From: an uncultured Enterobacteriaceae bacterium
Lineage (GTDB): Bacteria; Desulfobacterota; Binatia; Bin18
Direction of reading: 5' to 3'
DNA: 64,000 nucleotides
NCBI GenBank assembly: GCA_964502465.1
Contig: CAZCWX010000076.1
Location: 16,025 to 80,024, forward strand
Shown here in pieces: positions 21,529 through 44,445 of the stretch. The position numbers and the translations under genes were made by a program. How positions within the stretch are numbered: position 1 is the stretch's first letter; each line of letters starts with the position of its first letter. The notes below the pieces were generated by a model. That model did no database searches. It was not told the origin of the DNA and worked only from the letters and a program-made list of their open reading frames with translations.

Positions 21529-22779
21529 CTATTCGACCCACTTGCGAAACACTAAGCAGGCGTTAGTGCCGCCGAAACCAAACGAGTTGGATAAGGCAAC
21601 ACGAATAGAAGCTCGGCGAGCGACGTTCGGTACATAGTCCAGGTCACAGGCTGGATCTGGCTCTTCATAGTTGATCGTTGGGGGAAGACACTCATGATAG
21701 AGGGCAAGGGCTGAGTAGACTGCTTCTACCCCCCCAGCGGCGCCAAGCAGGTGACCGGTCATGGATTTGGTTGAGCTCACGGCTAAGCGTCCAGCATGCT
21801 CTCCAAACACGCATTTGATCGCGTGAGTTTCGGTCGCATCATTGTAAGGAGTCGAGGTGCCATGGGCATTAATGTAATCCACCTCAGTCGGATGAACGCC
21901 GCCACTCCGGAGAGCCATCCGCATACACCGCACGGCGCCTTCTCCATCTGGGGAGGGCGCGGTAATGTGGTATGCATCGCCGTTGGCACCATACCCGATC
22001 ACCTCAGCATAAATCCTGGCTCCACGGCTCTTGGCATGCTGCAATTCTTCAAGCACAATGATCCCCGCACCTTCAGCCATGACGAACCCATCACGGTTCC
22101 GGTCAAACGGACGGCTGGCTTTTTCGGGCTCCTCATTATGCGATGATACTGCCTTCATAGCAATGAACCCCCCCAACCCCAATGGAGTCAACGCGGCCTC
22201 CGCACCGCCTGCGATCATAGCGTCCTGCTCGCCGAGCCGGACAAGGCGAAATGCCTCTCCAATAGCATGTGCCCCTGAGGAGCATGCACTCGTCGGCGTG
22301 TAATTAATCCCTTTTGCTCCGTAGTGGATGGCGATCTGCCCAGGCGCAAGGTTGGCAATGAGCTTCGGAATAAAAAATGGCGAAACTTTTTTCAGTCGGG
22401 TCTCTAGAAACAATTTGTGATATTCTTCAATGCTTGACAGGCCGCCAATCCCCACACCCACGATGACTCCGACCATATCCTCATTGTCTGGCGTAATCGG
22501 GAGGCGTGCTTCATCCATCGCCATCCGTGCAGCAGCTACGGCATATTGGATGAAGGGATCCATCTTCTTGATCTCTTTTTTCTCAATAAAGTCCTCTGGA
22601 TGAAAGTCTTTCACCTCGCCAGCAATACGGGTGGGGAAATCGGATACATCAAAGCGGGAGATGGGGCTAATGCCGGAACGGCCCTCTAGCAGGGCATGCC
22701 AGTTTGTCTCCACCCCAATACCAAGAGGGGTCACCAGCCCCATGCCGGTGATCACGACACGGCGGCGCTCGTCTTTCAT
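21529..22779 (-). CDS. fabF: 3-oxoacyl-ACP synthase II
   Basis: RVVITGMGLVTPLG, PTSACSSGAHAIG, INAHGTSTP and SNSFGFGGTNA motifs. Confidence 0.96.
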   Translation of the reverse strand: MKDERRRVVITGMGLVTPLGIGVETNWHALLEGRSGISPISRFDVSDFPTRIAGEVKDFHPEDFIEKKEIKKMDPFIQYAVAAARMAMDEARLPITPDNEDMVGVIVGVGIGGLSSIEEYHKLFLETRLKKVSPFFIPKLIANLAPGQIAIHYGAKGINYTPTSACSSGAHAIGEAFRLVRLGEQDAMIAGGAEAALTPLGLGGFIAMKAVSSHNEEPEKASRPFDRNRDGFVMAEGAGIIVLEELQHAKSRGARIYAEVIGYGANGDAYHITAPSPDGEGAVRCMRMALRSGGVHPTEVDYINAHGTSTPYNDATETHAIKCVFGEHAGRLAVSSTKSMTGHLLGAAGGVEAVYSALALYHECLPPTINYEEPDPACDLDYVPNVARRASIRVALSNSFGFGGTNACLVFRKWVE

Positions 22780-23018
22780 ATTCCTCCTGTCCTTGTCTGC
22801 CTGTCGCTCAAGGAATTTGTGTATCTTAATGACTCTATTTCTTAACTGTCAACCACCGTTTTTACGTGGGTAGGACCGCTCTCTTCCTGTATCCAACCCA
22901 CCACAATCCGAGATACGCGAGCGCTCTTACCGTGCCTAGCGCAAAGAAAGACGGCAATCCTGCTATACTTGTTTCTCATTGAGGGGCACGTTGACCGCCT
23001 CTGGAAAATGCTCTAGCG

Positions 23019-23921
23019 TTGCGGAGCATGTCAGGACGAACCTTGCTTCCCTTGTGCAGCGTTGCCCTCCTCCTTCTTGGAGGGTGCTCCTCAACCGTAC
23101 AACGTCTCTCGGCGAAGGAATACTACACCCAGGCGGACGAAGCGTTTACCAAAGAGGACTTTACCACTGCTGCGGACCAGTACCGTGAGTTACTGGATCA
23201 ATATCCTCTGAATCCATACGCTGAAGAGGCTCAACTAAAAATTGCCTATTCGTACTATCTTGATAAAAAGTACACAGAAGCCATTGCGGCATTCGGTGAC
23301 TTCGAACGAGCTTTCCCAACCAGCCAACACCTGCCTTTTGTCGAGTATTACCGCGGCATGTGTTACCTGGAACAGATGCGCTCAATCGATCGTGACCAGA
23401 GTGTCACAGAAAAAGCTCATGATTTTTTCAAAGCGGTAGTCGAACGTTTCCCTGAAAGCTCTTTTGCCCCTCTGGCTGAAGAGAAAATCGCAGTGTGTCG
23501 GGAAGCAATGGCAGAAAACGAGCTGTACGTGGCGCAATTCAGTGAAAGAATTGGCAACCTGTTAGCTGCCAAAGCGCGGTTGCGCACCATCGTTGAGAAA
23601 TACCCTGAAACCAAAGTGACGGCTGACGCCTTGGCTCGTCTGGAAATTATTCTCACTTGGGAAGGCAGCACCGAGCTGGCAGGGTTAGCGGCGAAGGCAT
23701 TGGCAGTGCGGCGGTCGACCCAGCCAGCAATAGAACACACTACCGTGGCTTCACTCGATACCCAGGAGCTTCCTGCGCCAGGTGTTGACCCACTGCTGTT
23801 ATTAGTGACTGAACTCAAAAAGCAAGAAGAACGAGAAAGAGCGCAAATTCCGGGGACTATTAGGACTGGATCCACAGGTAAGGAATTTGGAGAAGAAGAT
23901 GGCGAGGGATATGAAGAGTGA
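23019..23921 (+). CDS. bamD: outer-membrane assembly lipoprotein BamD (TPR)
   Basis: Lipobox LLLGGC after a signal peptide. TPR-like repeats (YYTQADEAF..., AQLKIAYSYYLDKKYTEAIAAF..., YYRGMCYLEQ). Start is TTG 23019 or ATG 23028. Confidence 0.88.
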   Translation: MRSMSGRTLLPLCSVALLLLGGCSSTVQRLSAKEYYTQADEAFTKEDFTTAADQYRELLDQYPLNPYAEEAQLKIAYSYYLDKKYTEAIAAFGDFERAFPTSQHLPFVEYYRGMCYLEQMRSIDRDQSVTEKAHDFFKAVVERFPESSFAPLAEEKIAVCREAMAENELYVAQFSERIGNLLAAKARLRTIVEKYPETKVTADALARLEIILTWEGSTELAGLAAKALAVRRSTQPAIEHTTVASLDTQELPAPGVDPLLLLVTELKKQEERERAQIPGTIRTGSTGKEFGEEDGEGYEE

Positions 23922-23922
23922 G

Positions 23923-23951
23923 TTGACACTCCAGGAAATTTTCGCTAGCCT
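23923..23951 (+). promoter_or_regulatory. candidate sigma70-type promoter for the sulfur-carrier cluster
   Basis: TTGACA (23923-23928), a 17-nt spacer, then TAGCCT (23946-23951), directly after the bamD stop. Pattern match only. Confidence 0.25.
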
Positions 23952-24045
23952 TGCAAGGACTTAGGCCTGATAGCATCAAAGAAAACGACGCTCTCCTTAG
24001 CCTCTTTCTCATCAGGAAGGGGCTTTTCATTTTCATGATAGGACC

Positions 24046-24798
24046 ATGAATACTGTTAAGGCAGAAACTAATTCTCGCTTGCAAAGTGGGAAAGTCCTCG
24101 TAGTCGGTGTAGGGGGATTGGGCTCTCCCGCGGCTTTGGCACTTGCCGTTGCGGAGGTTGGAGTAATTGGCTTAGTCGATCCCGATACGGTTGAATTATC
24201 TAATCTTCAGCGCCAGATTCTTTATGCCACATCGGACTTAGGAAAATCAAAGGTTGCGTCGGCACGCGAGAAGCTCCTGCGGATTAATCCGCAGGTTGTT
24301 GTGCAGGCTCATCACGAGCGGCTACATCCAGGCAATCTTCTACAGCTTTTTCTGCCATACGACTTCATTATTGATGGGACAGATAGTGTGGCGACCAAGT
24401 TTCTTATTAATGACGGTGCAGTATTGATGGGAAAACCCTTTTCCTATGGAGGTATCGTACAATTTCATGGCCAGACTCTGACTGTGTTGCCAGGACAGAG
24501 TGCCTGTCTTCGCTGCCTTTTTCCTGTTCCTCCAGACCCAGACGAGATCCCAACCTGCCAGGAAAGCGGAATTCTTGGGAGTCTTGCTGGCACCCTAGGG
24601 TTCATGCAAGCAAATGAGGCAGTGAAGTACCTGAAAGGGCAAAATGATCTGCTCACTAACCGCTTGCTGACTTATGAAGCGCAGGCGCTACGCTGGCGAA
24701 TGGTGACTGTCCAACGGAACCCGCGCTGCCCTGTGTGTAGTCCGGTCCCCACTATTACGAGGCTACATCTCGAAGATCCGCAACAATCTGGAAATTAA
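24046..24798 (+). CDS. ThiF/MoeB-family E1-like adenylyltransferase (catalytic motifs intact, N-terminal helix missing)
   Basis: VLVVGVGGLGSPAAL G-loop, DPDTVELSNLQRQ, GTDSVATKFLIND, and Cys pairs CLRC and CPVC. An in-frame TAG at 23998-24000 forbids a longer N-terminus. Confidence 0.9.
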   Translation: MNTVKAETNSRLQSGKVLVVGVGGLGSPAALALAVAEVGVIGLVDPDTVELSNLQRQILYATSDLGKSKVASAREKLLRINPQVVVQAHHERLHPGNLLQLFLPYDFIIDGTDSVATKFLINDGAVLMGKPFSYGGIVQFHGQTLTVLPGQSACLRCLFPVPPDPDEIPTCQESGILGSLAGTLGFMQANEAVKYLKGQNDLLTNRLLTYEAQALRWRMVTVQRNPRCPVCSPVPTITRLHLEDPQQSGN

Positions 24799-24849
24799 TT
24801 GTGCAGCTAGAGGACAGATCTCTAGCTGCTGCATAGCAGAGGAGCCGGT

Positions 24850-26124
24850 ATGAGCAATATTAGTGGATTGACCTGCCGTGAATGTGGGCAGGAGTATCCC
24901 GTGGCCCCGTTACATGTATGTGAGACCTGTTTTGGTCCGCTCGAAGTGGTATACGACTATGACAGTATTCGCCATCGATTGACCCGAGATCTCATTCAAT
25001 CTCGCTCACCTTCAATCTGGCGCTACCGTGAACTGCTGCCAATCAGTGAAGAGCCGAAGATCGGCTTGTATAGCGGTTTTACCCCGTTAGTGAAGGCTGA
25101 TCGGCTTGCCGCACATCTCGGGGTCAAAGATCTGTATGTGAAAGACGACTCGGTGAACCATCCCACCTTCTCGTACAAGGATCGGGTCGTTGCGGTGGCA
25201 ATCTCTAAGGCTGTGGAATTTGGCTTTGACACTGTTTCCTGTGCCTCGACAGGAAACCTGGCAAATTCTGTCTCGGCACACGCTGCACGAGCAGGTCTCC
25301 GTTGTTTTATTTTTATTCCTGCGGACCTCGAGCAGGGGAAAATCATTGGCTCGACGATCTATGGCCCTCGTGCGGTGAGTATTCGTGGCAATTATGATGA
25401 TGTGAATCGCCTTTGCAGTGAGATAGCAGATAAATATGGCTGGGCCTTTGTCAACATCAACGTTCGTCCCTATTACACTGAAGGGGCAAAAACCTATGGG
25501 TTCGAAATTGCTGAACAACTCGGCTGGCAGCTCCCTCAGCACGTCGTCGTCCCTACTGCCGGAGGAACGATACTTCCTAAGATAGCGAAAGCATTTGAAG
25601 AGCTTAAAAAAGTCGGTCTTGTAGACAGTGGGCAGTCCCCAAAGATCTACAGTGCTCAAGCCGCTGGCTGTGCACCTGTGATTCAGGCGCTCCATAAAGG
25701 GACAGACCTGATTGCCCCAGTCAAGCCCAATACCATTGCCAAGTCGATCGCTATTGGCAACCCAGCCGATGGCTACTATGTCCTACGTGCGGTGCGCGAT
25801 TCGGGCGGTTGGGGTGAGGCAGTGACTGACGAGGAAATCATTGCAGGAATTCAGTTGCTCGCCCGGACTGAAGGAATTTTTACTGAACCAGCTGGTGGGA
25901 CAACTGTGGCGGTTACCAAGAAACTCATCGAACAAGGCCGCATTCCGCGAACTGAGTCGATTGTCATCTGTATTACGGGAAATGGTTATAAGACGCTCGA
26001 GGCTGTCGTCAATAACGTTGATTGCCCTCGTCTCATTAATGCCCGCTTGCAGGAGTTCGATGAACTGTATCGCTCTTTCTCTCCGCCTACTTCCTCACTG
26101 GCGACGCAGGATCACCTACACTAA
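24850..26124 (+). CDS. thrC: threonine synthase homologue with N-terminal Zn-ribbon
   Basis: PLP-Lys motif FSYKDR, STGN, and N-terminal CRECG...CETCFG. 424 aa. Confidence 0.9.
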   Translation: MSNISGLTCRECGQEYPVAPLHVCETCFGPLEVVYDYDSIRHRLTRDLIQSRSPSIWRYRELLPISEEPKIGLYSGFTPLVKADRLAAHLGVKDLYVKDDSVNHPTFSYKDRVVAVAISKAVEFGFDTVSCASTGNLANSVSAHAARAGLRCFIFIPADLEQGKIIGSTIYGPRAVSIRGNYDDVNRLCSEIADKYGWAFVNINVRPYYTEGAKTYGFEIAEQLGWQLPQHVVVPTAGGTILPKIAKAFEELKKVGLVDSGQSPKIYSAQAAGCAPVIQALHKGTDLIAPVKPNTIAKSIAIGNPADGYYVLRAVRDSGGWGEAVTDEEIIAGIQLLARTEGIFTEPAGGTTVAVTKKLIEQGRIPRTESIVICITGNGYKTLEAVVNNVDCPRLINARLQEFDELYRSFSPPTSSLATQDHLH

Positions 26125-26255
26125 CGGAGAAAAGGGCTTTCTCAGTCGATTATGTCCAAGAAAGACGAGGCAACGAAGAGCCCCCATAAGGGTGGTTGCC
26201 AGAGTAGAGGAAAATCGCCACAGTAAAAACGATTTCCCGTAAGGAGGTGCTAGGC

Positions 26256-26531
26256 ATGAGTGTTCAGGTGCGGGTGCCGACCCCGCTGCGTCGCTTCACC
26301 GGCGGTGCTGAAGAAGTGACTGTCAACGGAACGACTGTGGCCGCTTTAGTAGATGATTTAGAGAGCAATCATCCTGGTATGAAAGAACGTATCTGCGATG
26401 AGGAAGGGAAAGTTCGTCGTTTTGTCAATATCTTCGTCAATGGTGATGATATCCGCTTTCTCAATAATCTTGACACTCCGGTGAAAGATGGGGACGAGGT
26501 GTCGATTGTTCCTGCTATCGCTGGGGGATAA
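26256..26531 (+). CDS. cysO: CysO-type ubiquitin-fold sulfur carrier protein (MoaD/ThiS superfamily), C-terminal GG
   Basis: 91 aa ending VSIVPAIAGG*. By eye collinear with M. tuberculosis CysO as I remember it (..VPT.LR..TGG.., RFVNI.VNG.D.RF). ATG 26256 lies 8 nt after AAGGAGG. Confidence 0.9.
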   Translation: MSVQVRVPTPLRRFTGGAEEVTVNGTTVAALVDDLESNHPGMKERICDEEGKVRRFVNIFVNGDDIRFLNNLDTPVKDGDEVSIVPAIAGG

Positions 26532-26534
26532 GGG

Positions 26535-27521
26535 ATGTCCCTTTTACCGATACGGGGTGAAGGATTTCCGCCGCCGGAGTCGCAGCGAGTCCCTTCTGTC
26601 TTGCATTTGGTAGGGAATACCCCTCTTCTAAGAATCTCTAAAATAGCCACAGGCCTCTCCCCCCGAGTCCAGGTTTTTACCAAGCTTGAAGGCTTCAATC
26701 CTGGGGGATCTGTAAAAGACCGGCCAGCTCTACAGATGGTAGCAGAAGGACTACATACTGGTTCGCTTGCTCCGGGGAAGACCATTCTCGAATCCACTTC
26801 AGGCAATACCGGAATAGCCTTAGCAATGATTGGTGCTGTGCTCGGCTACCCGGTCGAGCTGGTCATGCCGGCAAATGTCAGCGTGGAACGCAAAAAGATT
26901 ATCGCGGCATATGGGGCGCGCATGATCTTTAGTAATCCCTTGGAAGGGTCAGACGGGGCAATTCGGCTGTGCCGCCAACTTCTTCATGAAACGCCTGATC
27001 GATACTTCAAGCCAGATCAATATTTTAATGAGGCAAACCCACTCGCTCACTACGAAACCACAGGACCAGAGATCTGGTATCAGACCGAGGGGCAAGTGAC
27101 CCACTTCGTTGCAGGCATTGGCACAGGTGGGACGATCATGGGGGCCGGTCGCTACCTTAAGGAGAGGAGCCAACAAGTTCAGGTCATTGCGGTCGAGCCT
27201 GATGATGCCTTTCATGGCCTAGAAGGACTGAAACACATGGCTAGCTCTATTGTCCCTGGGATCTACCATGAAGAAAAACTTGACCGTAAAATTCCAGTTT
27301 CTACGGAAAACGCCTATGATACGGTCTACCGGCTAGGGCGAGAAGAGGGGATACTGGTGGGCCAGTCCTCAGGAGCAGCACTTTGGGCTGCGCTCAAAGT
27401 GGCGCGTGAACTTGAGGAGGGTGTAGTGGTAACCCTATTCCCTGACTTCGGTGATAAATACCTGAGCACCACCCTGTGGGTCGGCTGGAAGGAGTTGAAT
27501 AAAAAAGCCCAAACCGTATAA
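26535..27521 (+). CDS. cysM: CysM-type cysteine synthase (O-phosphoserine/thiocarboxylate-dependent class likely)
   Basis: KLEGFNPGGSVKDR (PLP Lys), TSGNTG and GIGTGGT motifs. Starts 3 nt after the cysO stop. Confidence 0.93.
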   Translation: MSLLPIRGEGFPPPESQRVPSVLHLVGNTPLLRISKIATGLSPRVQVFTKLEGFNPGGSVKDRPALQMVAEGLHTGSLAPGKTILESTSGNTGIALAMIGAVLGYPVELVMPANVSVERKKIIAAYGARMIFSNPLEGSDGAIRLCRQLLHETPDRYFKPDQYFNEANPLAHYETTGPEIWYQTEGQVTHFVAGIGTGGTIMGAGRYLKERSQQVQVIAVEPDDAFHGLEGLKHMASSIVPGIYHEEKLDRKIPVSTENAYDTVYRLGREEGILVGQSSGAALWAALKVARELEEGVVVTLFPDFGDKYLSTTLWVGWKELNKKAQTV

Positions 27522-27535
27522 CGCAGAGGGGAGTC

Positions 27536-27772
27536 ATGAAAGAGAAATTTTATTTGACCTACCCTCCCGCCCTGGTCAAGGAACCTATCATTTACCTTGT
27601 CGGGAAAAAATTTAATGTGATTACGAACATTCGTGGAGCCAACATTTCGAACGATCTCGGCCTCGTTGCGTTGGAAATAGAAGGGCCGCAACTGGAGATT
27701 GACAACGCAGTGTCTTGGCTGCGATCCCAAGGGATCACGGTTGAGCCTATTGAGAAAAATGTCATCGAATGA
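27536..27772 (+). CDS. stand-alone NIL-domain protein
   Basis: 78 aa. FYLTYPPALVKEPIIYLVGKKFNVITNIRGANI....GLVALEIEG resembles the C-terminal NIL domain of MetN-type ABC ATPases. Confidence 0.8.
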   Translation: MKEKFYLTYPPALVKEPIIYLVGKKFNVITNIRGANISNDLGLVALEIEGPQLEIDNAVSWLRSQGITVEPIEKNVIE

Positions 27773-27781
27773 CTGATACTG

Positions 27782-28534
27782 ATGCTTTCTGACCGCCAGA
27801 TTGAGCGTTACAGTCGCCAGATTATCCTCCCTCAGGTCGGTGGCAAGGGCCAAGAAGCCCTCCTGCGCTCCAGCGTCCTGGTGAACGAGAGCGGGCTGTT
27901 GCAGACCTCCAGTTTATTGTACCTTGCTGCGGCTGGAGTGGGGAAAGTTGGGATCATGTCTAAGCTGTGTCCAGATCTTTTTTCTTCCCTTGCTGTTTTT
28001 TCAGATCTGAACCCAGACTGTCAGGTTGTGATGCACGACGAAACAGAGACCGTCGACCTCAAACAATTGGTACAAAAGTACGATATAATACTGTCACCTC
28101 CTGATACTCGACTGCATGCGATCTGTTATGAATTATGTTGTCCTTTTCTCTGTGCGGCGATGACCAGCTCGCATGGCTGGTTATTCTCTTCCCTGGGATA
28201 TCAGCCTGATTGGCCTTGTCTCCACTGTCTCCCTCCGCAGTTTTCTGAGAACCCTATCGATTCCTTTGTCAATGAGCGTTCTCTGCAGCAAGAAAAAGGG
28301 GAAGCGTTCACCAACCTTGCCCCCAATATCTCTGCGAACTTTTTAGCAAGCTGGTCGCCAATGGCCATGTTCTTTGGAGCTTTGCAGGCCACTGAAGCAC
28401 TGAAGCTGCTTCTTGGGCTGAATCAGACATTGGCTAGAAAACTATGGCAGTGCCATTTTACCCCCTTATATTTCTCTGAGCATCTGATAGAAAAGAAGCC
28501 TCAGTGTCCTCTGTGTGGAAAACCCTCCTTTTAG
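27782..28534 (+). CDS. degenerate ThiF/MoeB-like paralogue (predicted adenylation-dead)
   Basis: Keeps the N-terminal IERYSRQIILPQVGGKGQEAL helix, the Cys pairs CLHC and CPLC, and LQATEALKLLLG. The G-loop is VLVNESGLLQTSS, and the DxDxVxxSNLxRQ segment is replaced by MSKLCPDLFSSLAV. Confidence 0.75.
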   Translation: MLSDRQIERYSRQIILPQVGGKGQEALLRSSVLVNESGLLQTSSLLYLAAAGVGKVGIMSKLCPDLFSSLAVFSDLNPDCQVVMHDETETVDLKQLVQKYDIILSPPDTRLHAICYELCCPFLCAAMTSSHGWLFSSLGYQPDWPCLHCLPPQFSENPIDSFVNERSLQQEKGEAFTNLAPNISANFLASWSPMAMFFGALQATEALKLLLGLNQTLARKLWQCHFTPLYFSEHLIEKKPQCPLCGKPSF

Positions 28535-28660
28535 GTTACGCCAAAGAGCTTCGTATTTCCCCAACGTGAAAAGGTACAATAAACTTGTCTGCGCTCTTAT
28601 TGGAGTGTAGAATTTTTGCTCGATGTCTACTTTATCTCAATTTCTCTTCTAAGGAGTTAT

Positions 28661-30349
28661 ATGGAAAAAGGGTTCACTCTTTGGTTTACCGGCATGTCAG
28701 GGGCGGGCAAGTCCACTATCACAAACGCGTTGACCCCTCGATTACAAGATTTAGGCAAACGGGTTGAGGTCCTCGATGGAGACGAGGTCCGTCTGAACCT
28801 CAGTAAAGGCTTAGGCTTTAGCAAAGAGGATCGTGACACGAATATCCGTCGAATCGGTTATGTCGCTCACCTGTTGACACGGAACGGCGCGGTCGCGATC
28901 ACCGCTGCCATTTCTCCTTACCGGGCTATACGCGATGAAGTACGCAATTTTATCGGAAACTTTGTTGAGGTGTACGTCAAGTGTCCACTCGAAACTCTGA
29001 TTGCCCGCGATGTAAAAGGGCTCTACAAGAAAGCCCTCACTGGTGAGATTAAAGAATTCACGGGAATTTCAGATCCTTATGAGGAGCCCCTTCATCCGGA
29101 GGTTGTGGTGGAAACTGACCGTGAGACAGTAGAAGAGAGTGTCGAGAAAATTCTCTCTCGGCTGCAGGAACTGGGGTTGATTGCGCACGCGGTTGGTACG
29201 ATTGCCCCACATGGCGGGGTGCTCGTGAATCGCCTCGTCACCGGAACTCAGCGGGACGCACTTTTGGAAAAAGCCCGCACCCTTCCGACAATCCAACTCG
29301 ACGAACGGGCGCAGAGCGACATAGAGATGATTGCTGTGGGCGCATTTTCGCCATTACGCGGATTTCTTGGGGCTGCCGATTATCACATGGTAGTTGAGAA
29401 CATGCGGTTAATCTCTGGACTTCCGTGGTCAATTCCGATCACCTTGCAAGTTTCACGTGCTCAGGCAGACACACTGAAAGACGGGACAGAGGTGGCGCTG
29501 ATTGATGAACGAAATATGACCCTCGCGATCTTGGAATTAGCCGAGCGCTATCTGCCAGATCAGGAAGAAGAAGTACAACGGGTGTATGGAACGACAGATG
29601 CCGCTCATCCTGGAGTGGCCGCAGTCCTTGGTGGAGGTGAGGTGTATCTTGGGGGAGAGATTCAGGTGTTGAATCGACCCGATACCGTTGCATTTCCTAC
29701 GTATCACCGAGACCCTGCGCAGACGCGCGCATTGTTTCGTGAACGGGGGTGGCAAACGGTGGTCGGATTCCAAACCCGGAACCCCATTCATCGGGCTCAT
29801 GAATATATCACGAAGTGTGCTCTTGAAATCGTCGATGGATTGCTGCTCCACCCGCTTGTCGGGAAGACCAAGAGCGATGACATCCCTGCGGCTGTGCGTA
29901 TGCGCTGTTATGAAGAGCTGCTAGCCCATTATTACCCAACCGAGCGCGTCATGTTGTCTGTGTATCCGGCTGCGATGCGATACGGAGGTCCGCGTGAGGC
30001 AATCTTTCACGCGATTGCCCGCAAGAACTATGGCTGCACCCACTTTATTGTTGGCAGGGATCACGCCGGTGTCGGCAGCTATTATGGGACCTACGACGCG
30101 CAGAAAATCTTCGATGAATTTACTCCAGGAGAACTGGGTATCCAGCCTCTCAAATTTGAGAACGCCTTCTTTTCTCAAGTGACCGGCCAGATGGCCACAG
30201 CCAAAACTGCCCCGGGTGGACCTGAAACTCAAGTCAATCTCTCCGGCACAAAAGTCCGCGAAATGTTAAGCAATGGCGAGCAGCCCCCTGCCGAATTCTC
30301 CCGGCCTGAGGTTGCCGCAGTGCTCATCGGCGCGATGAAACGACGATAG
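28661..30349 (+). CDS. bifunctional adenylylsulfate (APS) kinase / sulfate adenylyltransferase (kinase N-terminal)
   Basis: N-terminal [12 protein letters not shown]-loop (APS kinase). C-terminal [11 protein letters not shown] and GRDHAGVG (ATP sulfurylase). ATG 28661 lies 5 nt after AAGGAG. Confidence 0.93.
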
Positions 30350-30377
30350 GAGAAGAGGATGGCGTAGAGCGGAGGCG

Positions 30378-30830
30378 CTATTCTTCCGCTGCTACGCCAA
30401 TGCGAATGATGAGCGTTCCCTCTTGGTGGGTCTGTCCGGCAATAAAGAGGGCGCCCGGATTGGGGATGCGGAGATAGGTGCTCATAAGAGAGGTCGGGGT
30501 CGAACCTTCCATCAGCATCACTTGCAGTGCGATCTTCTCGTTTACGTATTCCTTGGGAACTACCTGGAGAAAGCGCCCTCCGGGCAGCGAAAAATCAGCC
30601 TGTTTTCCCCACCCCACTTGTCGCCGTTCTTCTTGCACGAGACGATATGAGGAGTAGCGAAAAGCGTTCAATTGGGGTCGGAAGGGCATGAGTCGGTTAT
30701 CAAAGTCTTTCGACGCGTTCGTAGCAAGAACGGTTTCGATCCGAACCTCTACCATTTCGCCAGCGTTGGCCTGAAGCACCCATGCCAATATCGTTGCAAC
30801 GCAGAATAAGACGAGGCAGCGTGTCCTCAT
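30378..30830 (-). CDS. hypothetical secreted protein (third gene of the ECF sigma operon)
   Basis: Signal peptide MRTRCLVLFCVATILAWVLQANA. The start overlaps the anti-sigma stop (ATGA). Confidence 0.6.
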   Translation of the reverse strand: MRTRCLVLFCVATILAWVLQANAGEMVEVRIETVLATNASKDFDNRLMPFRPQLNAFRYSSYRLVQEERRQVGWGKQADFSLPGGRFLQVVPKEYVNEKIALQVMLMEGSTPTSLMSTYLRIPNPGALFIAGQTHQEGTLIIRIGVAAEE

Positions 30831-31369
30831 GGCACCGCTCCACCTCGGTCATCTTCTATCCAGATAACAGGCGAATTGCTTGTCGGTTCGTTCCAGAGTG
30901 CTACAGTGGTGGCTGCTGACAGTGATTCGATTTGGGCTTGATTGTGAGCGGCGACGGCAATGGGAATGGGGGGTTGGGTAACGAACAGTGATTCGACCGA
31001 TGATCGCAGTTGTGGGAAAAACAAGAAAGAGACGAGTAACAGAGCTACCGCAGCTGCGCTAACAGGAACACTGAGTGACCAGTCAGGCCACCACTGCTCG
31101 CGCCACAACTGCAGGCGCACAGACCAAGACGGCTTTGGTACAAGGAGCTTGTTTTCGATCTGCTTCCAGAAACTCGAGAAATCAACCTTCTCGACTTGTG
31201 AGTCAATTTCCTGTAACAGCAGCTCTTGCATGCGATCGAGAGAAGCAAGCCAACGAGTGCACGCGACGCAACTAGCTACATGAGATCGCACTTCTCGCCG
31301 TAACGGTCCATCCAATTCCCCGTCACAGAGCAAGACAGCTAACCGCTCGTATTGTGGGCATTTCATCAT
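30827..31369 (-). CDS. anti-sigma factor (zf-HC2 type, single TM)
   Basis: MMKCPQYERL...HVASCVACTRW putative zinc-finger motif. TM segment VPVSAAAVALLLVSFLFF. Directly downstream of the ECF sigma gene. Start is ATG 31369 or TTG 31390. Confidence 0.75.
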   Translation of the reverse strand: MMKCPQYERLAVLLCDGELDGPLRREVRSHVASCVACTRWLASLDRMQELLLQEIDSQVEKVDFSSFWKQIENKLLVPKPSWSVRLQLWREQWWPDWSLSVPVSAAAVALLLVSFLFFPQLRSSVESLFVTQPPIPIAVAAHNQAQIESLSAATTVALWNEPTSNSPVIWIEDDRGGAVP

Positions 31370-37116: not shown

Positions 37117-37836
37117 CTAATTCTCGATGACGACTTCTACTCTCCGATTTTTTGCTCTTCCTTCCGGATTGTCAGAGCCGTCTGGGTTGGTGTTCGGAGC
37201 AACAGGGTAGCGCTTCCCATATCCCTTGGTGATGACGCGGTTTGGGCTGACTCCTGAATTCTCCAGCGTCATTGCCACGTTTTCAGCGCGGCGTTCGGAA
37301 AGTTGCTGATTAAAGGCGTCACTGCCGATCGAATCGGTATGTCCCTCGATCGACACACGTCGCCCCTGCGCTTGGTTGTTCAGCACTTGGCTCATATCTT
37401 GTATTTTCATCTGAGCATCACCGGTGAGGTCAGTTCGACCAAAATCAAACAGGACATCAGGAAGATTGACAACCACCCCACGTTCAGTCTCACGTGCCTC
37501 GAGGTTCTGCTTTCTTAATTCTTCGAGCAGTTCCCGGTTCCGTGCGAGTTCTTGTCGTTGCTGTTCGATTTGCTGTTGCTGTTCTTGCGCAACAGTGTCA
37601 CGTTTTTGCAATTGGTCACCAACGAGGGCCCCAGTTCCGGCACCGAGCGCAGTGCCAATTGCCGCGCCAGCTCCAGGACTACCAACGGCTGCCCCGATGA
37701 TCGCCCCGGCAGCACCGCCGATACCACCACCAACGAGGGTACTTTTCTCACGGGTGCTTAATGGTTGCGAACAACTGGCCAACAACGCCACGGCTATCAG
37801 GCAGGCTGTGTTCCGCCAGACAAACATTTTTCTCAT
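37117..37836 (-). CDS. OmpA-family lipoprotein with glycine-zipper and coiled-coil N-terminal half
   Basis: Lipobox LLASC. GGGIGGAAGAIIGAAVGSPGAGAAIG glycine zipper. Q-rich coil. C-terminal OmpA-like domain (FDFGRTDL..., GHTDSIGSDAFNQQLSERRA). Confidence 0.88.
   Translation of the reverse strand: MRKMFVWRNTACLIAVALLASCSQPLSTREKSTLVGGGIGGAAGAIIGAAVGSPGAGAAIGTALGAGTGALVGDQLQKRDTVAQEQQQQIEQQRQELARNRELLEELRKQNLEARETERGVVVNLPDVLFDFGRTDLTGDAQMKIQDMSQVLNNQAQGRRVSIEGHTDSIGSDAFNQQLSERRAENVAMTLENSGVSPNRVITKGYGKRYPVAPNTNPDGSDNPEGRAKNRRVEVVIEN
37615..37775 (-). repeat. copy A of an approximately 160-bp direct repeat (duplicated lipoprotein 5' region)
   Basis: By eye near-identical to 37995-38155 at an offset of 380 bp, with mostly third-position differences. 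Confidence 0.8.
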
Positions 37837-37854
37837 ATCTCCACCTTGTTGATA

Positions 37855-38220
37855 TTAATAGTAATCGTCCTCAGTTGTTCTGCGTTGCTGGCGCTTGAGC
37901 TCTTCCATTTCTCGGCGTTGCCGTTCAATTTCCTGTTGTTGCTGCTGAATCTCTTGTTGTTGCTGAGATTGCTGAGCATCTTGGCTTTGGAGTTTATCAC
38001 CGGCAAGAGCACCAGTCCCGGCTCCCAAGGCTGTTCCAATTGCCGCGCCGGCTCCAGGACTGCCAACAGCTGCCCCGATAATCGCCCCGGCAGCGCCGCC
38101 GATACCGCCACCAACGAGGGTACTTTTCTCGCGGGTGCTTAACGGTTGCGAACAACCGCTCGCAATGAACATCAGGGCGAGTATCGCCCCTCCCAATCTA
38201 ACGCTCCGTACTGTTATCAT
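37855..38220 (-). CDS. glycine-zipper lipoprotein (paralogue of the N-terminal half of the OmpA-family gene)
   Basis: Lipobox FIASGC. The CSQPLSTREKSTLVGGGIGGAAGAIIGAAVGSPGAGAAIGTALGAGTGAL block is identical to the downstream gene. ATG 38220 lies 8 nt after GGAGG. Confidence 0.75.
   Translation of the reverse strand: MITVRSVRLGGAILALMFIASGCSQPLSTREKSTLVGGGIGGAAGAIIGAAVGSPGAGAAIGTALGAGTGALAGDKLQSQDAQQSQQQQEIQQQQQEIERQRREMEELKRQQRRTTEDDYY
37995..38155 (-). repeat. copy B of an approximately 160-bp direct repeat (duplicated lipoprotein 5' region)
   Basis: See copy A. Confidence 0.8.
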
Positions 38221-38324
38221 ACTGTGCACCTCCAAAGTCACAGATAAGGAAATAAGCTTATCTTAATCGGCAAAATTTTCTGCGTCAATAGAAATACTCA
38301 TAGACAGACAAGACCCTCTCCGGG

Positions 38325-42812: not shown

Positions 42813-43613
42813 TTACTGCCGCTGGAGGATACCATCTTCGACCCAACGGATAAGTAGGGCGCCCACCTCTTGTGCTGCGTGTTCGGGGGGTACCAATGAC
42901 TCAACCGTCTCGCAAATCGTTGCGAACGCCTCCCCTGCTTGTACGCATTGAAGTGCGTGTTGCTCGATCGGATCCATGCTGGCCTGGTACACAATAAAAT
43001 TGTCACGCCACACACGCACAGCCGTCTCAACGGGCTGCGCGAGCGTCCAGTCTACTGCCATCTCGTCCCCCAAAATGGACCAGATATCGTGAATCGGCCA
43101 GGCGCTGGTGAGAATCTGACAGGCAGGGATCAAACAAAATTTCAGCTGAGGCCATTCTTCTGGCGGGATGGCCTGTAAATCTGTCATTTGGAGGGGAACA
43201 GCATCACAAGCGTCGAATACCTCCAAGCGTGCCCACTCAAGCCGCGCCAAGTCGGGCAGGAAGGGGAACATTTTCCTGTCTCGGTGCGTACTGAGAAATG
43301 TTGGGAAGGAGCGACCGATATACCGCAAGGAAGGATGAACTGAAGGAGTGCCGGCCAAGTAGACACGGGCGACTGCACGAAAATGTTCAGGACCTAAGGC
43401 GGCAGCGACACGCAGAAAATCCTCACTCAGCGCATCAAGGATCCGGGCGCAGTACATTTGCGCGTAAATATCGATGCGCTCTTCAGCTCCAAGCGGCCCC
43501 CGACCCTGGACAAGCTGGACGAAATCTGGATCAAAACCATACTTACTAGCTGCAGGCGGTGGGGAAGCAATGGCCTGAAAAAATTTTAATTGTAATTCAC
43601 GCAGAGTGAGCAT
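42813..43613 (-). CDS. bufC: DUF2063-family partner protein of the MNIO (BufC/HvfC-like)
   Basis: N-terminus LRELQLKFFQAI....ERIDIYAQMYCARILDALSEDF is typical of DUF2063. Start overlaps the DUF692 stop by 17 nt. Confidence 0.85.
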   Translation of the reverse strand: MLTLRELQLKFFQAIASPPPAASKYGFDPDFVQLVQGRGPLGAEERIDIYAQMYCARILDALSEDFLRVAAALGPEHFRAVARVYLAGTPSVHPSLRYIGRSFPTFLSTHRDRKMFPFLPDLARLEWARLEVFDACDAVPLQMTDLQAIPPEEWPQLKFCLIPACQILTSAWPIHDIWSILGDEMAVDWTLAQPVETAVRVWRDNFIVYQASMDPIEQHALQCVQAGEAFATICETVESLVPPEHAAQEVGALLIRWVEDGILQRQ

Positions 43614-44445
43614 AGTTCATAGTGAGAGATTGGGATGCAAACGCGCGCGCACGTTCGGCTTCGGCGCAGAGCACCTCGAACTCGGGGACCTGATCATCCC
43701 ACTCAATCAGGGTTGAGACTTGCCCGAAGCGGCGCACTGCCAGGCAGTAGAGTTCCCACACTGGCTCAATGACAAGACCATCATGCGTATCTAACAGGTA
43801 TGTCCCTTTGTTACTGTGCCCCGCCAGATGGATCTGGCCAATGCGATCTAGTGGCAGTGCCGTTAGGTATGTTTCTGGCGCAAAGCCGTGATTCCTCGCA
43901 CTGACATAGACATTATTCACGTCGAGGAGAATACCACAGTCAGCCTGTTCGGCAATTTCTGCAAGGAAAACCCACTCGGGCATTGTCGAGTGCGAGAAGG
44001 TCAGATAGCTGGAGACATTTTCGACCAAGATCTGGCGACCGAGCCAGTCCTGCACTTGCCCTATCCGTTCAACAACGTGCCTGAGGGCTTCCTCAGTATA
44101 TGGCAGTGGCAGCAAGTCGTGCGCATAATGTCCACCGACACTCCCCCAACACAGATGATCTGATATCCAGGCAGGTTCGAAGCGCTCCACCAATACGCGC
44201 AGATGACACAGATAGGCTTCATTCAAGGGATCGGTCGAACCTAAAGAGAGGGAAACCCCGTGCAAAACCAGAGGGGCGAGTGAGCGGGCTCGTTCGAGCA
44301 CTGCCAGTGGCCGCCCACCACGGATCATGAAGTTTTCGGAGATCGCTTCAAACCAGTCTACCTGCGCCGTCCCCTCCCAGATACGAGGAAAATGTTTGGT
44401 GCGCAACCCGACGCCATGACCGAGGTAGGGAACTGTACAAGCCAT
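43597..44445 (-). CDS. bufB: DUF692/MbnB-family multinuclear non-haem iron oxidase (BufB/HvfB-like)
   Basis: GVGLRTKHF...VDWFEAISENF...LHGVSLSLGS...ISDHLCW...ENVSSY...LLDVNNVY...IHLAGH are canonical DUF692 (TIM-barrel) blocks. Confidence 0.92.
   Translation of the reverse strand: MACTVPYLGHGVGLRTKHFPRIWEGTAQVDWFEAISENFMIRGGRPLAVLERARSLAPLVLHGVSLSLGSTDPLNEAYLCHLRVLVERFEPAWISDHLCWGSVGGHYAHDLLPLPYTEEALRHVVERIGQVQDWLGRQILVENVSSYLTFSHSTMPEWVFLAEIAEQADCGILLDVNNVYVSARNHGFAPETYLTALPLDRIGQIHLAGHSNKGTYLLDTHDGLVIEPVWELYCLAVRRFGQVSTLIEWDDQVPEFEVLCAEAERARAFASQSLTMNYAHSA

Follow-up and report, generated by a model that had tools for sequence, protein, structure and literature searches.

Among the closest described systems is the cysteine pathway of M. 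tuberculosis, which consists of CysO, CysM, Mec+ and MoeZR (PMC3227635). For Streptomyces albulus, Hasebe et al. (2024) document a ThrC homologue, MetM, that uses the thiocarboxylated carrier MetO, with MoeZ and Mec, in a thiocarboxylate route from O-phosphohomoserine to homocysteine. This MetM/MetO precedent was absent from the first-pass annotation of the DNA analyzed here. A third group comprises the HcyS/HcyF/HcyD/MetY system of Wolinella succinogenes and the "sulfur-metabolism" ThiS/MoaD-JAB-E1-SirA operons (class 4e) of Iyer et al. 2006 (PMC1779556). E1 heterodimers with one inactive subunit are represented by SAE1/SAE2, APPBP1/UBA3 and yeast Tcd1/Tcd2 (PMC12355090, PMC13139853).

The window, i.e., the whole analyzed stretch of 64 kb, contains seven co-directional ORFs on the + strand between positions 24046 and 30349. 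Assignment of their domains with Pfam and NCBIfam profiles gave the order E1 (g1), ThrC-like enzyme (g2), GG-ended carrier (g3), CysM (g4), NIL protein (g5), degenerate E1 (g6) and APS kinase–ATP sulfurylase (g7), with intergenic spacers of 51, 131, 3, 14, 9 and 81–126 nt. The ORF list and these assignments thus bear out the seven-gene cluster of the first-pass annotation. A perfect 10-bp hairpin, GCAGCTAGAG-gacagat-CTCTAGCTGC, was read directly from the sequence of the g1-g2 spacer (24803..24829, + strand). Upstream of the carrier gene (26188..26226, + strand), alignment A3 revealed a conserved promoter/operator-like block, GGGTGgTTGCCA-N17-CACAGT, whose internal spacing is constant in 47 upstream regions while its distance to the start codon varies. 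This block had no match in Rfam, and the SAM riboswitch reported for S. albulus metM was not found at the cluster, which speaks against a MetM-like route here.

The arrangement E1–[ThrC]–carrier–[CysM]–[NIL]–pseudo-E1 recurs in about 48 independent loci, mostly from Candidatus Binatia MAGs, and is therefore far beyond chance. Sulfate activation genes (APSK-Sat or CysD-CysNC) come next in most of the loci whose sequence is long enough. The carrier gene is present in all complete loci (45/45), accompanied by ThrC, CysM or both; since the loci are phylogenetically related, these co-occurrence counts overstate independence. The identity to the carrier of the window is approximately 75–88% in the loci with a pseudo-E1 and 69% in locus L016.

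In both the cluster and the M. tuberculosis system, the gene for a GG-ended ubiquitin-fold carrier immediately precedes that for a PLP enzyme of the CysK/M family, and a MoeB/ThiF-superfamily E1 is present. The cluster differs in that the window has neither a JAB protease nor a rhodanese domain, that its E1 belongs to the MoeB type, has two CxxC pairs and is divided into catalytic and pseudo subunits, and that a ThrC-like enzyme, a NIL protein and sulfate activation are added. The view of the first-pass annotation that this is a carrier-protein cluster of the thiocarboxylate type for sulfur amino acids, more elaborate than CysO/CysM of M. tuberculosis, is supported. The Wolinella and class 4e operons (PMC1779556) resemble it in combining a carrier and a rhodanese-less E1 with ATP sulfurylase and APS kinase. 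However, they always include JAB and SirA/TusA and use MetY, whereas the cluster described here has no JAB or TusA nearby and uses the ThrC-like enzyme and CysM.

The new element of the cluster is the E1 pair, in which each protein has lost the half of the catalytic apparatus that the other retains. The first gene, g1 (24046..24798, + strand), encodes a catalytic E1 of the MoeB/ThiF type with 250 aa (Pfam ThiF, 237 bits). According to the motif census and alignments, its ATP site is complete, and both the loop Cys and the Zn Cys4 site are present. Missing are the N-terminal RYxRQ arginine-finger helix and, in the copy of the window, the C-terminal tail Cys. Consistent with this, it aligns to positions 21–249 of the 250 positions of the NCBIfam MoeB profile, the first ~20 being absent. 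The sixth gene, g6 (27782..28534, + strand), encodes a pseudo-E1 of 250 aa with a ThiF/MoeB fold and a weak Pfam ThiF match (71.5 bits). It retains the N-terminal helix (RYSRQ, the sole E1-type RYxRQ in all six frames of the window) and the Zn Cys4 site, while the ATP/Mg ligands, the loop Cys and the C-terminal tail are gone. In the family alignments (A1, A2, A4) and the column comparison, the equivalents of MoeB R73, K86 and D130 are lost and the first 25 residues are nearly invariant. The AF2 model of g6 (pLDDT 84) superimposes on ThiF/MoeB with a TM score of 0.73–0.77. Both genes are under purifying selection (dN/dS 0.16 for g1 and 0.31 for g6), and g6 is not decaying, as its dN/dS and the fold retained in the model indicate.

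In all 44 two-E1 loci of the genome scan, the g1-type protein lacks RYxRQ and carries GxGGxG and SNLxRQ, and the g6-type protein shows the exact inverse of this pattern; the g1-type loop Cys is present in every locus except L006. Among 39 classified canonical E1s, drawn from single-E1 loci and the double-E1 loci of Nitrospirota, the N-terminal helix and GxGGxG occur together in each case (39/39). The second, degenerate E1 noted in the first-pass annotation is thus real and conserved, but the complementarity of the two genes had been overlooked. The arginine fingers of ThiF (Arg11) and MoeB (Arg14) are donated by the neighbouring subunit, and in the yeast ThiF-family heterodimer Tcd1/Tcd2 the inactive partner provides it to the active paralogue (PMC13139853), which matches the complementary motif loss in g1 and g6. 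We infer from these motif patterns that the two proteins assemble into a heterodimer that is asymmetric and has one active site. Like SAE1/SAE2, APPBP1/UBA3 and Tcd1/Tcd2, the pair would consist of two paralogous adenylation-fold proteins. In contrast to these eukaryotic E1s, the predicted subunits are bacterial and small (250 aa), their target would be a sulfur carrier instead of a protein or tRNA modifier, and the N-terminal helix is also gone from the putative active subunit.

The arginine finger was reported to be catalytically non-essential in MoeB and ThiF, and E. coli TcdA has none (PMC13139853), so g1 might function as a homodimer alone. In that case g6 would act as an adaptor or regulator with an E1 fold; it might, for instance, hold the carrier, hand it to CysM or the ThrC-like enzyme, or tie the pathway to sulfate activation. 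The family-specific residues C80 (invariant) and H112 (80%) of g6, which are absent from canonical E1s, and its position directly upstream of the sulfate activation genes wherever the downstream gene could be identified would fit such a role. The strongest constraint in g6, however, lies in the N-terminal helix, precisely the part that g1 has lost; the loss is strictly reciprocal in 44/44 loci, and E1-fold proteins are obligate dimers in every matched structure. Such a role is therefore considered unlikely.

The third gene, g3 (26256..26531, + strand), encodes a CysO/MetO-like ubiquitin-fold sulfur carrier of 91 aa with the native C-terminus ...AIAGG*. Of the two possible starts (26247 or 26256, giving 94 or 91 aa), the ATG at 26256 is backed by 47 orthologues with the same ATG and by an independent gene call. 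Its Pfam/NCBIfam class is ThiS/MoaD/SAMP1-like (ThiS, 69 bits; NF041918, 68.5 bits, cutoff 60; TIGR01687, 60.6 bits, cutoff 49.5). Since g3 exceeds the NCBIfam cutoffs for SAMP1 and archaeal MoaD, and the third-best NCBIfam match of g1 is the SAMP-activating E1 UbaA (232.7 bits, below the cutoff of 450), one could imagine that the carrier and E1 work in SAMP-like protein conjugation, molybdopterin synthesis or tRNA thiolation and that the PLP enzymes have no part in it. The 3-nt spacing between carrier and CysM genes, the conserved order with PLP enzymes and sulfate activation, and the lack of MoaE, E2 and tRNA-thiolation genes in the cluster (Pfam) make this highly improbable.

The gene starting 3 nt past the carrier stop codon, g4 (26535..27521, + strand), encodes a cysteine synthase of the CysK/CysM family (328 aa). 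It scored 363 bits with TIGR01136 (cutoff 344) and 393.2 bits with TIGR01138 (cysM; cutoff 394.2). In the PDB it matches cysteine synthases, among them M. tuberculosis CysM (3dki). The similarity to the latter is not higher than to ordinary CysK/CysM, which counts against the reading preferred here.

The second gene, g2 (24850..26124, + strand), encodes a PLP enzyme of the threonine synthase family with an N-terminal zinc ribbon (424 aa; PALP, 237 bits). It exceeds the NCBIfam cutoff for threonine synthase PRK08197 (NF006050, 329 bits, cutoff 303) and among solved structures it is closest to threonine synthases, which speaks against the reading preferred here and would be expected of a housekeeping threonine synthase placed in an operon for cysteine only. 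This alternative is very unlikely, since in 45 loci from several phyla ThrC-like genes adjoin or lie near genes for an E1 and a carrier of the ThiS/MoaD type (Binatia, Nitrospirota, Saganbacteria, Margulisiibacteriota, Omnitrophota, Latescibacterota and others), including loci without CysM between the two E1 genes. Moreover, Hasebe et al. (2024) describe MetM as "often misannotated" as threonine synthase. The gene product of g2 resembles MetM, by family and neighbourhood, as a threonine synthase homologue encoded beside a sulfur carrier; it differs in that MoeZ and Mec are absent from the window and that the carrier is apparently common to CysM. We propose that g2 is a MetM-like homocysteine synthase dependent on carrier thiocarboxylate.

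The fifth gene, g5 (27536..27772, + strand), encodes a stand-alone NIL-domain protein of 78 aa (Pfam NIL, 47.4 bits, cutoff 24), with weak similarity in the PDB only to the MetN C-terminal domain (E = 0.02–0.8). [quoted passage not shown] Known examples tied to homocysteine or methionine are MetN and the NIL-ferredoxin subunit of L-aspartate-semialdehyde sulfurtransferase (MA1822/DvMF_0262), whereas g5 has no ferredoxin or ABC ATPase domain and belongs to a thiocarboxylate pathway. A NIL gene is found in 13 of 14 loci with both ThrC and CysM compared to 1 of 31 other loci, which suggests that g5 is a methionine-sensing regulator of the homocysteine branch.

The last gene, g7 (28661..30349, + strand), encodes a bifunctional enzyme for sulfate activation to PAPS, with an N-terminal APS kinase (207 bits), a PUA_2 domain (190 bits) and a C-terminal ATP sulfurylase (320 bits), a domain order reversed relative to NF004040. 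Starts at 28616 or 28661 would yield 577 or 562 aa; the independent gene call gave 562 aa.

In the other ORFs of the window of at least 90 aa, Pfam detected neither a JAB or rhodanese domain nor TusA, sulfite reductase or PAPS reductase. A six-frame search of the window found no JAMM motif, in agreement with the first-pass annotation on this protease. Its further claim that known components do not account for sulfur loading and product release does not follow, as absence from 64 kb is no proof. E. coli MoeB also depends on separate sulfur donors, IscS and YnjE (PMC3227635). Among the related carriers, 22 extend 2–12 residues past AIAGG. Judging from these predicted C-termini, which need trimming, their genomes must encode a C-terminal processing protease more than 10 kb away on either side, and the gene for the "missing" protease probably lies elsewhere in the genome. 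JAB and Sir-TusA are present in homologous clusters of Nitrospirales, Saganbacteria and others.

Although the window yielded no sulfite reductase, sulfur donor or release protease, we give a probability of roughly 60% to the reading that this operon of an uncultured, Binatia-like bacterium directs sulfur into cysteine and homocysteine via one ubiquitin-fold carrier, a g1-g6 E1 heterodimer and tuning by NIL. Domain content and conservation were observed directly, and the chemistry is proposed from them as follows. Sulfate would be activated to APS/PAPS by g7 and reduced to sulfide by enzymes encoded elsewhere. In the heterodimer, g1 would supply the ATP/Mg site and adenylate the carrier, while g6 as non-catalytic partner would provide the dimer interface and the arginine-finger helix in trans. 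The acyl-adenylate would be converted to the thiocarboxylate by sulfide or by a persulfide donor encoded elsewhere. CysM would then transfer the thiocarboxylate onto the aminoacrylate from O-phosphoserine or O-acetylserine, and the MetM-type enzyme onto O-phosphohomoserine. A protease, probably of the JAB type and encoded elsewhere, would free the amino acid, and the NIL protein would sense methionine and adjust the homocysteine branch where the carrier serves both branches. The dual role already considered in the first-pass annotation is the best reading, as the same carrier accompanies CysM, ThrC or the two together in related loci. The fit of the ThrC-like gene to the MetM/MetO route makes it probable that a single carrier supplies the synthesis of both cysteine and homocysteine.

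Open reading frames were found for all members of the co-directional seven-gene cluster claimed in the first-pass annotation (ORF list, Pfam and NCBIfam). On the forward strand, the cluster starts with a ThiF/MoeB-type E1 (g1, 24046-24798; ThiF, 237 bits), followed by a PLP enzyme of the threonine synthase family that carries a zinc ribbon at its N-terminus (g2, 24850-26124; NF006050, 329 bits, cutoff 303), a ThiS/MoaD/SAMP1-like carrier ending in AIAGG directly before the stop codon (g3, 26256-26531; ThiS, 69 bits) and a CysK/M-family enzyme (g4, 26535-27521; TIGR01136, 363 bits, above the cutoff of 344; TIGR01138, 393.2 bits, cutoff 394.2). The remaining genes encode a NIL protein of 78 aa (g5, 27536-27772; PF09383, 47.4 bits, gathering score 24), a protein with a weak ThiF match (g6, 27782-28534; 71.5 bits) and an APS kinase-PUA_2-ATP sulfurylase (g7, 28661-30349; Pfam, NCBIfam). 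The domain order of g7 is the reverse of that in NF004040 (ATP sulfurylase, then APS kinase), which it matches in two stretches with 605 bits, below the cutoff of 669. The starts of g3 (91 aa) and g7 (562 aa) were also called independently on a second assembly of this sequence, and an ATG equivalent to that of g3 begins 47 orthologues.

The cluster is flanked by the housekeeping genes for BamD/YfiO, FabF and FabH upstream and by an ECF sigma/anti-sigma pair and an ABC-2 transporter downstream. A perfect 10-bp hairpin, GCAGCTAGAG gacagat CTCTAGCTGC, lies at 24803-24829, in the 51 nt that separate g1 from g2. Elsewhere in the window, on the reverse strand, two neighbouring lipoprotein-like genes (37117-38241) share a near-identical glycine-zipper N-terminal region, and one of them carries an OmpA domain. 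An MbnB/TglH/ChrH-family RiPP-modification enzyme (42813-44445, reverse strand; 356 bits) adjoins a DUF2063 protein, an arrangement typical of peptide-modification systems.

For the comparison across genomes, the g6 protein was searched, its relatives were aligned and 80 loci were taken from species-representative genomes, onto which the seven window proteins were mapped. The relatives of g6 form a large family with 38-85% identity, mostly from MAGs of Candidatus Binatia, "Deltaproteobacteria" and Methylomirabilota. The neighbourhood comparison that the first-pass annotation had proposed showed that the gene order recurs: about 48 loci, here termed Binatia-type, contain a g6-type gene and have one common skeleton. 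Four variants were found. Three are E1-ThrC-carrier-CysM-NIL-pseudoE1 followed by either a fused APS kinase-ATP sulfurylase or CysD and a CysN/C fusion, E1-carrier-CysM-pseudoE1-CysD-CysNC, and E1-ThrC-carrier-pseudoE1. In the fourth, represented by one locus, the order is E1-ThrC-carrier-NIL-pseudoE1. BamD lies next to the cluster on its upstream side in 38 Binatia-type loci, as it does in the window. The carrier was found in 45 of 45 loci having both E1 genes on the contig, and it is about 75-88% identical to g3 whichever PLP enzyme accompanies it (exception L016, 69%).

Related clusters with complete E1s were identified in Nitrospirota, where the order is (CysM)-E1-ThrC-carrier-NIL-E1, and in Saganbacteria, Margulisiibacteriota, Omnitrophota, Latescibacterota and Aerophobetes, where it is (CysM)...ThrC-carrier-E1-NIL. 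Many clusters of other phyla also have a Prok-JAB gene, a sulfite reductase-TusA fusion or separate TusA, an Rrf2 regulator or a rhodanese. Inside ThrC-carrier-E1-NIL clusters, a sulfite reductase with a C-terminal TusA, or one followed by a separate TusA gene, was observed at L059:4785-7016, L063:6131-8464 and L077:3461-4581. This placement suggests that reduced sulfur is handed directly to the carrier system.

The pair of g3 and g4 resembles CysO/CysM of M. tuberculosis in that a ThiS/MoaD-fold carrier with a C-terminal Gly-Gly is encoded together with a CysK/M-family PLP enzyme, whose start lies 3 nt past the stop codon of g3. However, g4 is not nearer to CysM of M. tuberculosis (206 bits) than to that of E. 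coli (243 bits). It is predicted to use the carrier thiocarboxylate, and its specificity for O-phosphoserine is likewise putative. MoeZR is an E1-rhodanese fusion, whereas g1 and g6 have 250 aa each and consist of a ThiF domain only; the MoeZ profile NF005902 gave 241 bits with a cutoff of 647.

The ThrC homologue had been regarded as an unexplained extra component. Its presence was confirmed, but it is not without precedent. MetM of Streptomyces albulus is described as a homologue of threonine synthase that is "often misannotated as such" and that converts O-phosphohomoserine to homocysteine via the thiocarboxylate of the carrier MetO, with MoeZ and Mec as accessory enzymes (Hasebe et al., 2024, as summarised in the GapMind 2026 preprint and PMC12172450). 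The adjacent g2 and g3 correspond to this arrangement, a threonine-synthase homologue encoded with a sulfur carrier. g2 scores above the NCBIfam cutoffs for threonine synthase, and threonine synthases are also its closest matches among solved structures, as would be expected for a housekeeping ThrC. Yet in 45 loci from many phyla, some of them without CysM between the two E1 genes, a ThrC-like gene adjoins or lies near an E1 and a ThiS/MoaD-type carrier, and this recurrent pairing argues for a carrier-dependent rather than a housekeeping ThrC. We infer that g2 is an orthologue of MetM, which would form homocysteine from O-phosphohomoserine and the carrier thiocarboxylate. Since both branches have a precedent, in MetM/MetO and in CysO/CysM (PMC3227635), the simplest reading would be that one carrier feeds two PLP enzymes. 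A SAM riboswitch is reported upstream of S. albulus metM (PMC12172450), whereas a search for a riboswitch or leader RNA gave no Rfam match at all in the window (gathering score) or in the region 22700-30900 (E<=1).

The claim that the window encodes no JAMM protease and that neither E1 has a rhodanese domain held in the Pfam and motif searches. JAB/JAMM, rhodanese, TusA, sulfite-reductase and PAPS-reductase domains were absent from the remaining ORFs of the window with 90 aa or more (Pfam), and a six-frame search of the window revealed no JAMM motif. This distinguishes the cluster from the M. tuberculosis system with its JAB/JAMM protease Mec+, and the difference extends to the neighbourhoods, as no JAB ORF was found within 10 kb on either side of any of the 48 Binatia-type loci (858 kb). 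Matches to "TusA-like" and "JAMM-like" regular expressions in Binatia loci were spurious on inspection. A JAB ORF lies beside the E1 in 16 of 32 canonical-E1 loci.

From the absence of these genes, loading and release steps beyond the known components had been proposed. This part was not supported, since the absence need not mean new chemistry. AIAGG is the C-terminus of 26 Binatia-type carriers, while the remaining 22 (L015, L017, L018, L022, L023, L026-L034, L036, L038-L044) have 2-12 residues beyond it, for example SG, NCGPV, KYGPA and SFCPRLATLGTP. Such extensions need to be removed before adenylation; judging from these predicted C-termini, the genomes concerned must therefore encode a processing protease outside the ±10 kb neighbourhood. 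Release in known carrier systems is performed by the same enzyme class, a JAB-type protease (PMC3227635; GapMind 2026 preprint), and the sulfur donors of E. coli MoeB, IscS and YnjE, are separate proteins (PMC3227635). A genuinely JAB-independent mechanism would be unlikely.

NIL was found in 13 of 14 complete loci with both ThrC and CysM but in 1 of the 31 remaining complete loci (Fisher p = 2.6e-9, with phylogenetically non-independent loci), and in no complete locus without ThrC. The sole PDB similarity of g5 is a weak one to the C-terminal domain of MetN (E = 0.02-0.8). NIL has been described as methionine-binding and as regulating enzyme activity (PMC12068725), and genetic data show a requirement for NIL-ferredoxin proteins in an unrelated homocysteine pathway (PMC5764234). 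By analogy, we propose that g5 may sense methionine and regulate the homocysteine branch.

A conserved promoter/operator-like block, GGGTGgTTGCCA-N17-CACAGT, precedes the carrier gene at 26188-26226. Of 47 Binatia-type loci examined, most share it, with either ThrC or E1 as the upstream gene. It has a fixed internal spacing, a variable distance to AGGAGG/ATG and no Rfam match. The variable distance to the start codon spoke against a hairpin, and for this reason a promoter/operator is preferred; the block suggests a putative internal regulated promoter for the carrier.

The two E1 genes, on which the findings are the most distinctive, were compared by alignments and a motif census of 46 g1-type and 46 g6-type proteins from the loci and of 65 g6-type sequences in the family alignment. 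The g1-type proteins retain GxGGxG, the DxD and NLxRQ segment, the Lys, the Mg-binding Asp (ATP-site residues equivalent to MoeB R73, K86 and D130) and both CxxC pairs, with the Zn Cys4 site intact in g1, as well as the loop Cys in all except L006. The N-terminal segment QIERYSRQIILPxVGGxGQ, which contains the RYxRQ helix, is missing from g1 and all 46 g1-type orthologues. The g6-type proteins keep this segment almost invariantly, with L2, Q6, Y10, S11, R12, Q13, I14, I15, L16, G20, G21, G23 and Q24 invariant in 65 sequences, together with both CxxC pairs. All ligands of ATP and Mg and the loop Cys are gone from this group; in the column comparison, g6 itself has lost the loop Cys as well as GxGGxG, DxD, NLxRQ, the Lys and the Mg-binding Asp. 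Such reciprocal loss was found in 44 of 44 genome-scan loci with both E1 genes; all 39 classified canonical E1s, from single-E1 and Nitrospirota double-E1 loci, have the N-terminal helix and GxGGxG. The sole E1-type RYxRQ in a six-frame search of the window is that of g6. A metagenome scan with g1 added one Binatia-type locus (L082) and no counter-example, a weak result as the patterns are generic and mostly returned MoeB/MoeZ.

The description of g6 as a second, degenerate E1 is correct regarding the weak ThiF match and the lost ATP ligands; g6 is, however, not decaying but under purifying selection (median dN/dS 0.31 compared to 0.16 for g1). This value and 27 invariant columns across 65 sequences exclude a pseudogene. 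The AlphaFold model of g6 is confident (pLDDT 84, pTM 0.81) and has TM-scores of 0.73-0.77 to E. coli ThiF and MoeB. g6 is a pseudoenzyme which keeps the fold and has lost the ATP-binding and catalytic residues.

In ThiF and MoeB, one subunit contributes an arginine finger (Arg11 and Arg14, respectively) to the ATP site of its neighbour, and in the yeast ThiF-family heterodimer Tcd1/Tcd2 it is given by the inactive subunit to the active one (PMC13139853). Canonical eukaryotic E1s are constructed in the same way (PMC12355090). The reciprocal motif loss of g1 and g6 fits the inactive-partner logic of Tcd1/Tcd2 and SAE1/SAE2. From the losses and these precedents, we infer that g1 and g6 would form a heterodimer with one active site, with the caveat that the finger is reportedly dispensable in MoeB and ThiF (PMC13139853).

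The g6 family also has residues of its own near the degenerate nucleotide pocket, an invariant Cys80 (canonical Val) and a His112 in 80% of the sequences (canonical Asn), which may constitute a new ligand- or sulfur-binding site. A tail Cys located 16-29 (mostly 19-21) residues past the second CxxC was observed in 37 of 39 complete E1s and 37 of 46 g1-type proteins; g6-type proteins are without a C-terminal tail. The window g1 has no tail Cys because a TAA stop lies one codon ahead of the in-frame Cys codon (24796-24810, TAA TTG TGC AGC TAG). In active E1s, this Cys may be a swinging-arm sulfur-relay residue.

In a neighbour-joining tree, the g1-type proteins group with the Nitrospirota E1 upstream of ThrC; g6 could not be placed due to its long, divergent branch. 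Its position after NIL is that of the second Nitrospirota E1. In seven Nitrospirota loci (L056, L057, L068, L075, L076, L078, L080), two complete E1s flank ThrC-carrier-NIL with a single carrier gene, and a Prok-JAB-type gene directly follows the cluster in L068, L078 and L080. The split pair may have descended from such an arrangement of two complete E1s. The tree grouping of g1 and the matching position of g6 suggest that both derive from a subfunctionalised ancestral duplicate. A farther-reaching joint reading is tentative and, taken as a whole, rather doubtful: g1 and g6 would be an obligate asymmetric heterodimer whose subunits degenerated reciprocally after a MoeB-type E1 had been duplicated, an origin considered because Nitrospirota retain two complete copies in the same positions, and g6, freed from catalysis, together with NIL would partition the single carrier between the cysteine and homocysteine synthases in response to methionine. 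If true, a prokaryotic lineage would have repeated, independently, the step from which the eukaryotic two-subunit E1s emerged.

Operon classes combining ThiS/MoaD, JAB and E1 with cysteine synthase or sulfur-assimilation genes, always with JAB and additionally with rhodanese or SirA, are reported in the available text of Iyer et al. (2006; PMC1779556), which mentions no threonine synthase and describes no inactive E1 or NIL. Apart from eukaryotic cases, the literature searched for bacterial heterodimeric or pseudo-E1 activators of sulfur carriers contained just the single-chain IAD/AAD E1s of antiviral Bil systems, which is no proof of novelty. In our placement, the chemistry of the pathway is known, and new are the use of one carrier for two branches, the stand-alone NIL and the reciprocal E1/pseudo-E1 pair. 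The interpretation of the first-pass annotation is thus partly supported, and the overall model of the cluster is given a probability of roughly 60%.

To our knowledge, protein-thiocarboxylate routes to cysteine and methionine are described for few organisms only and are treated as separate pathways. The results suggest that Candidatus Binatia and relatives, a widespread lineage, run both routes from one carrier. This affects metabolic reconstruction, where the ThrC-like gene would be mis-called as threonine synthase and the pseudo-E1 as MoeB. The poorly understood NIL domain gains a testable role, and the E1/pseudo-E1 pair would offer a simple bacterial model of how asymmetric E1s with a single active site evolve from symmetric homodimers.
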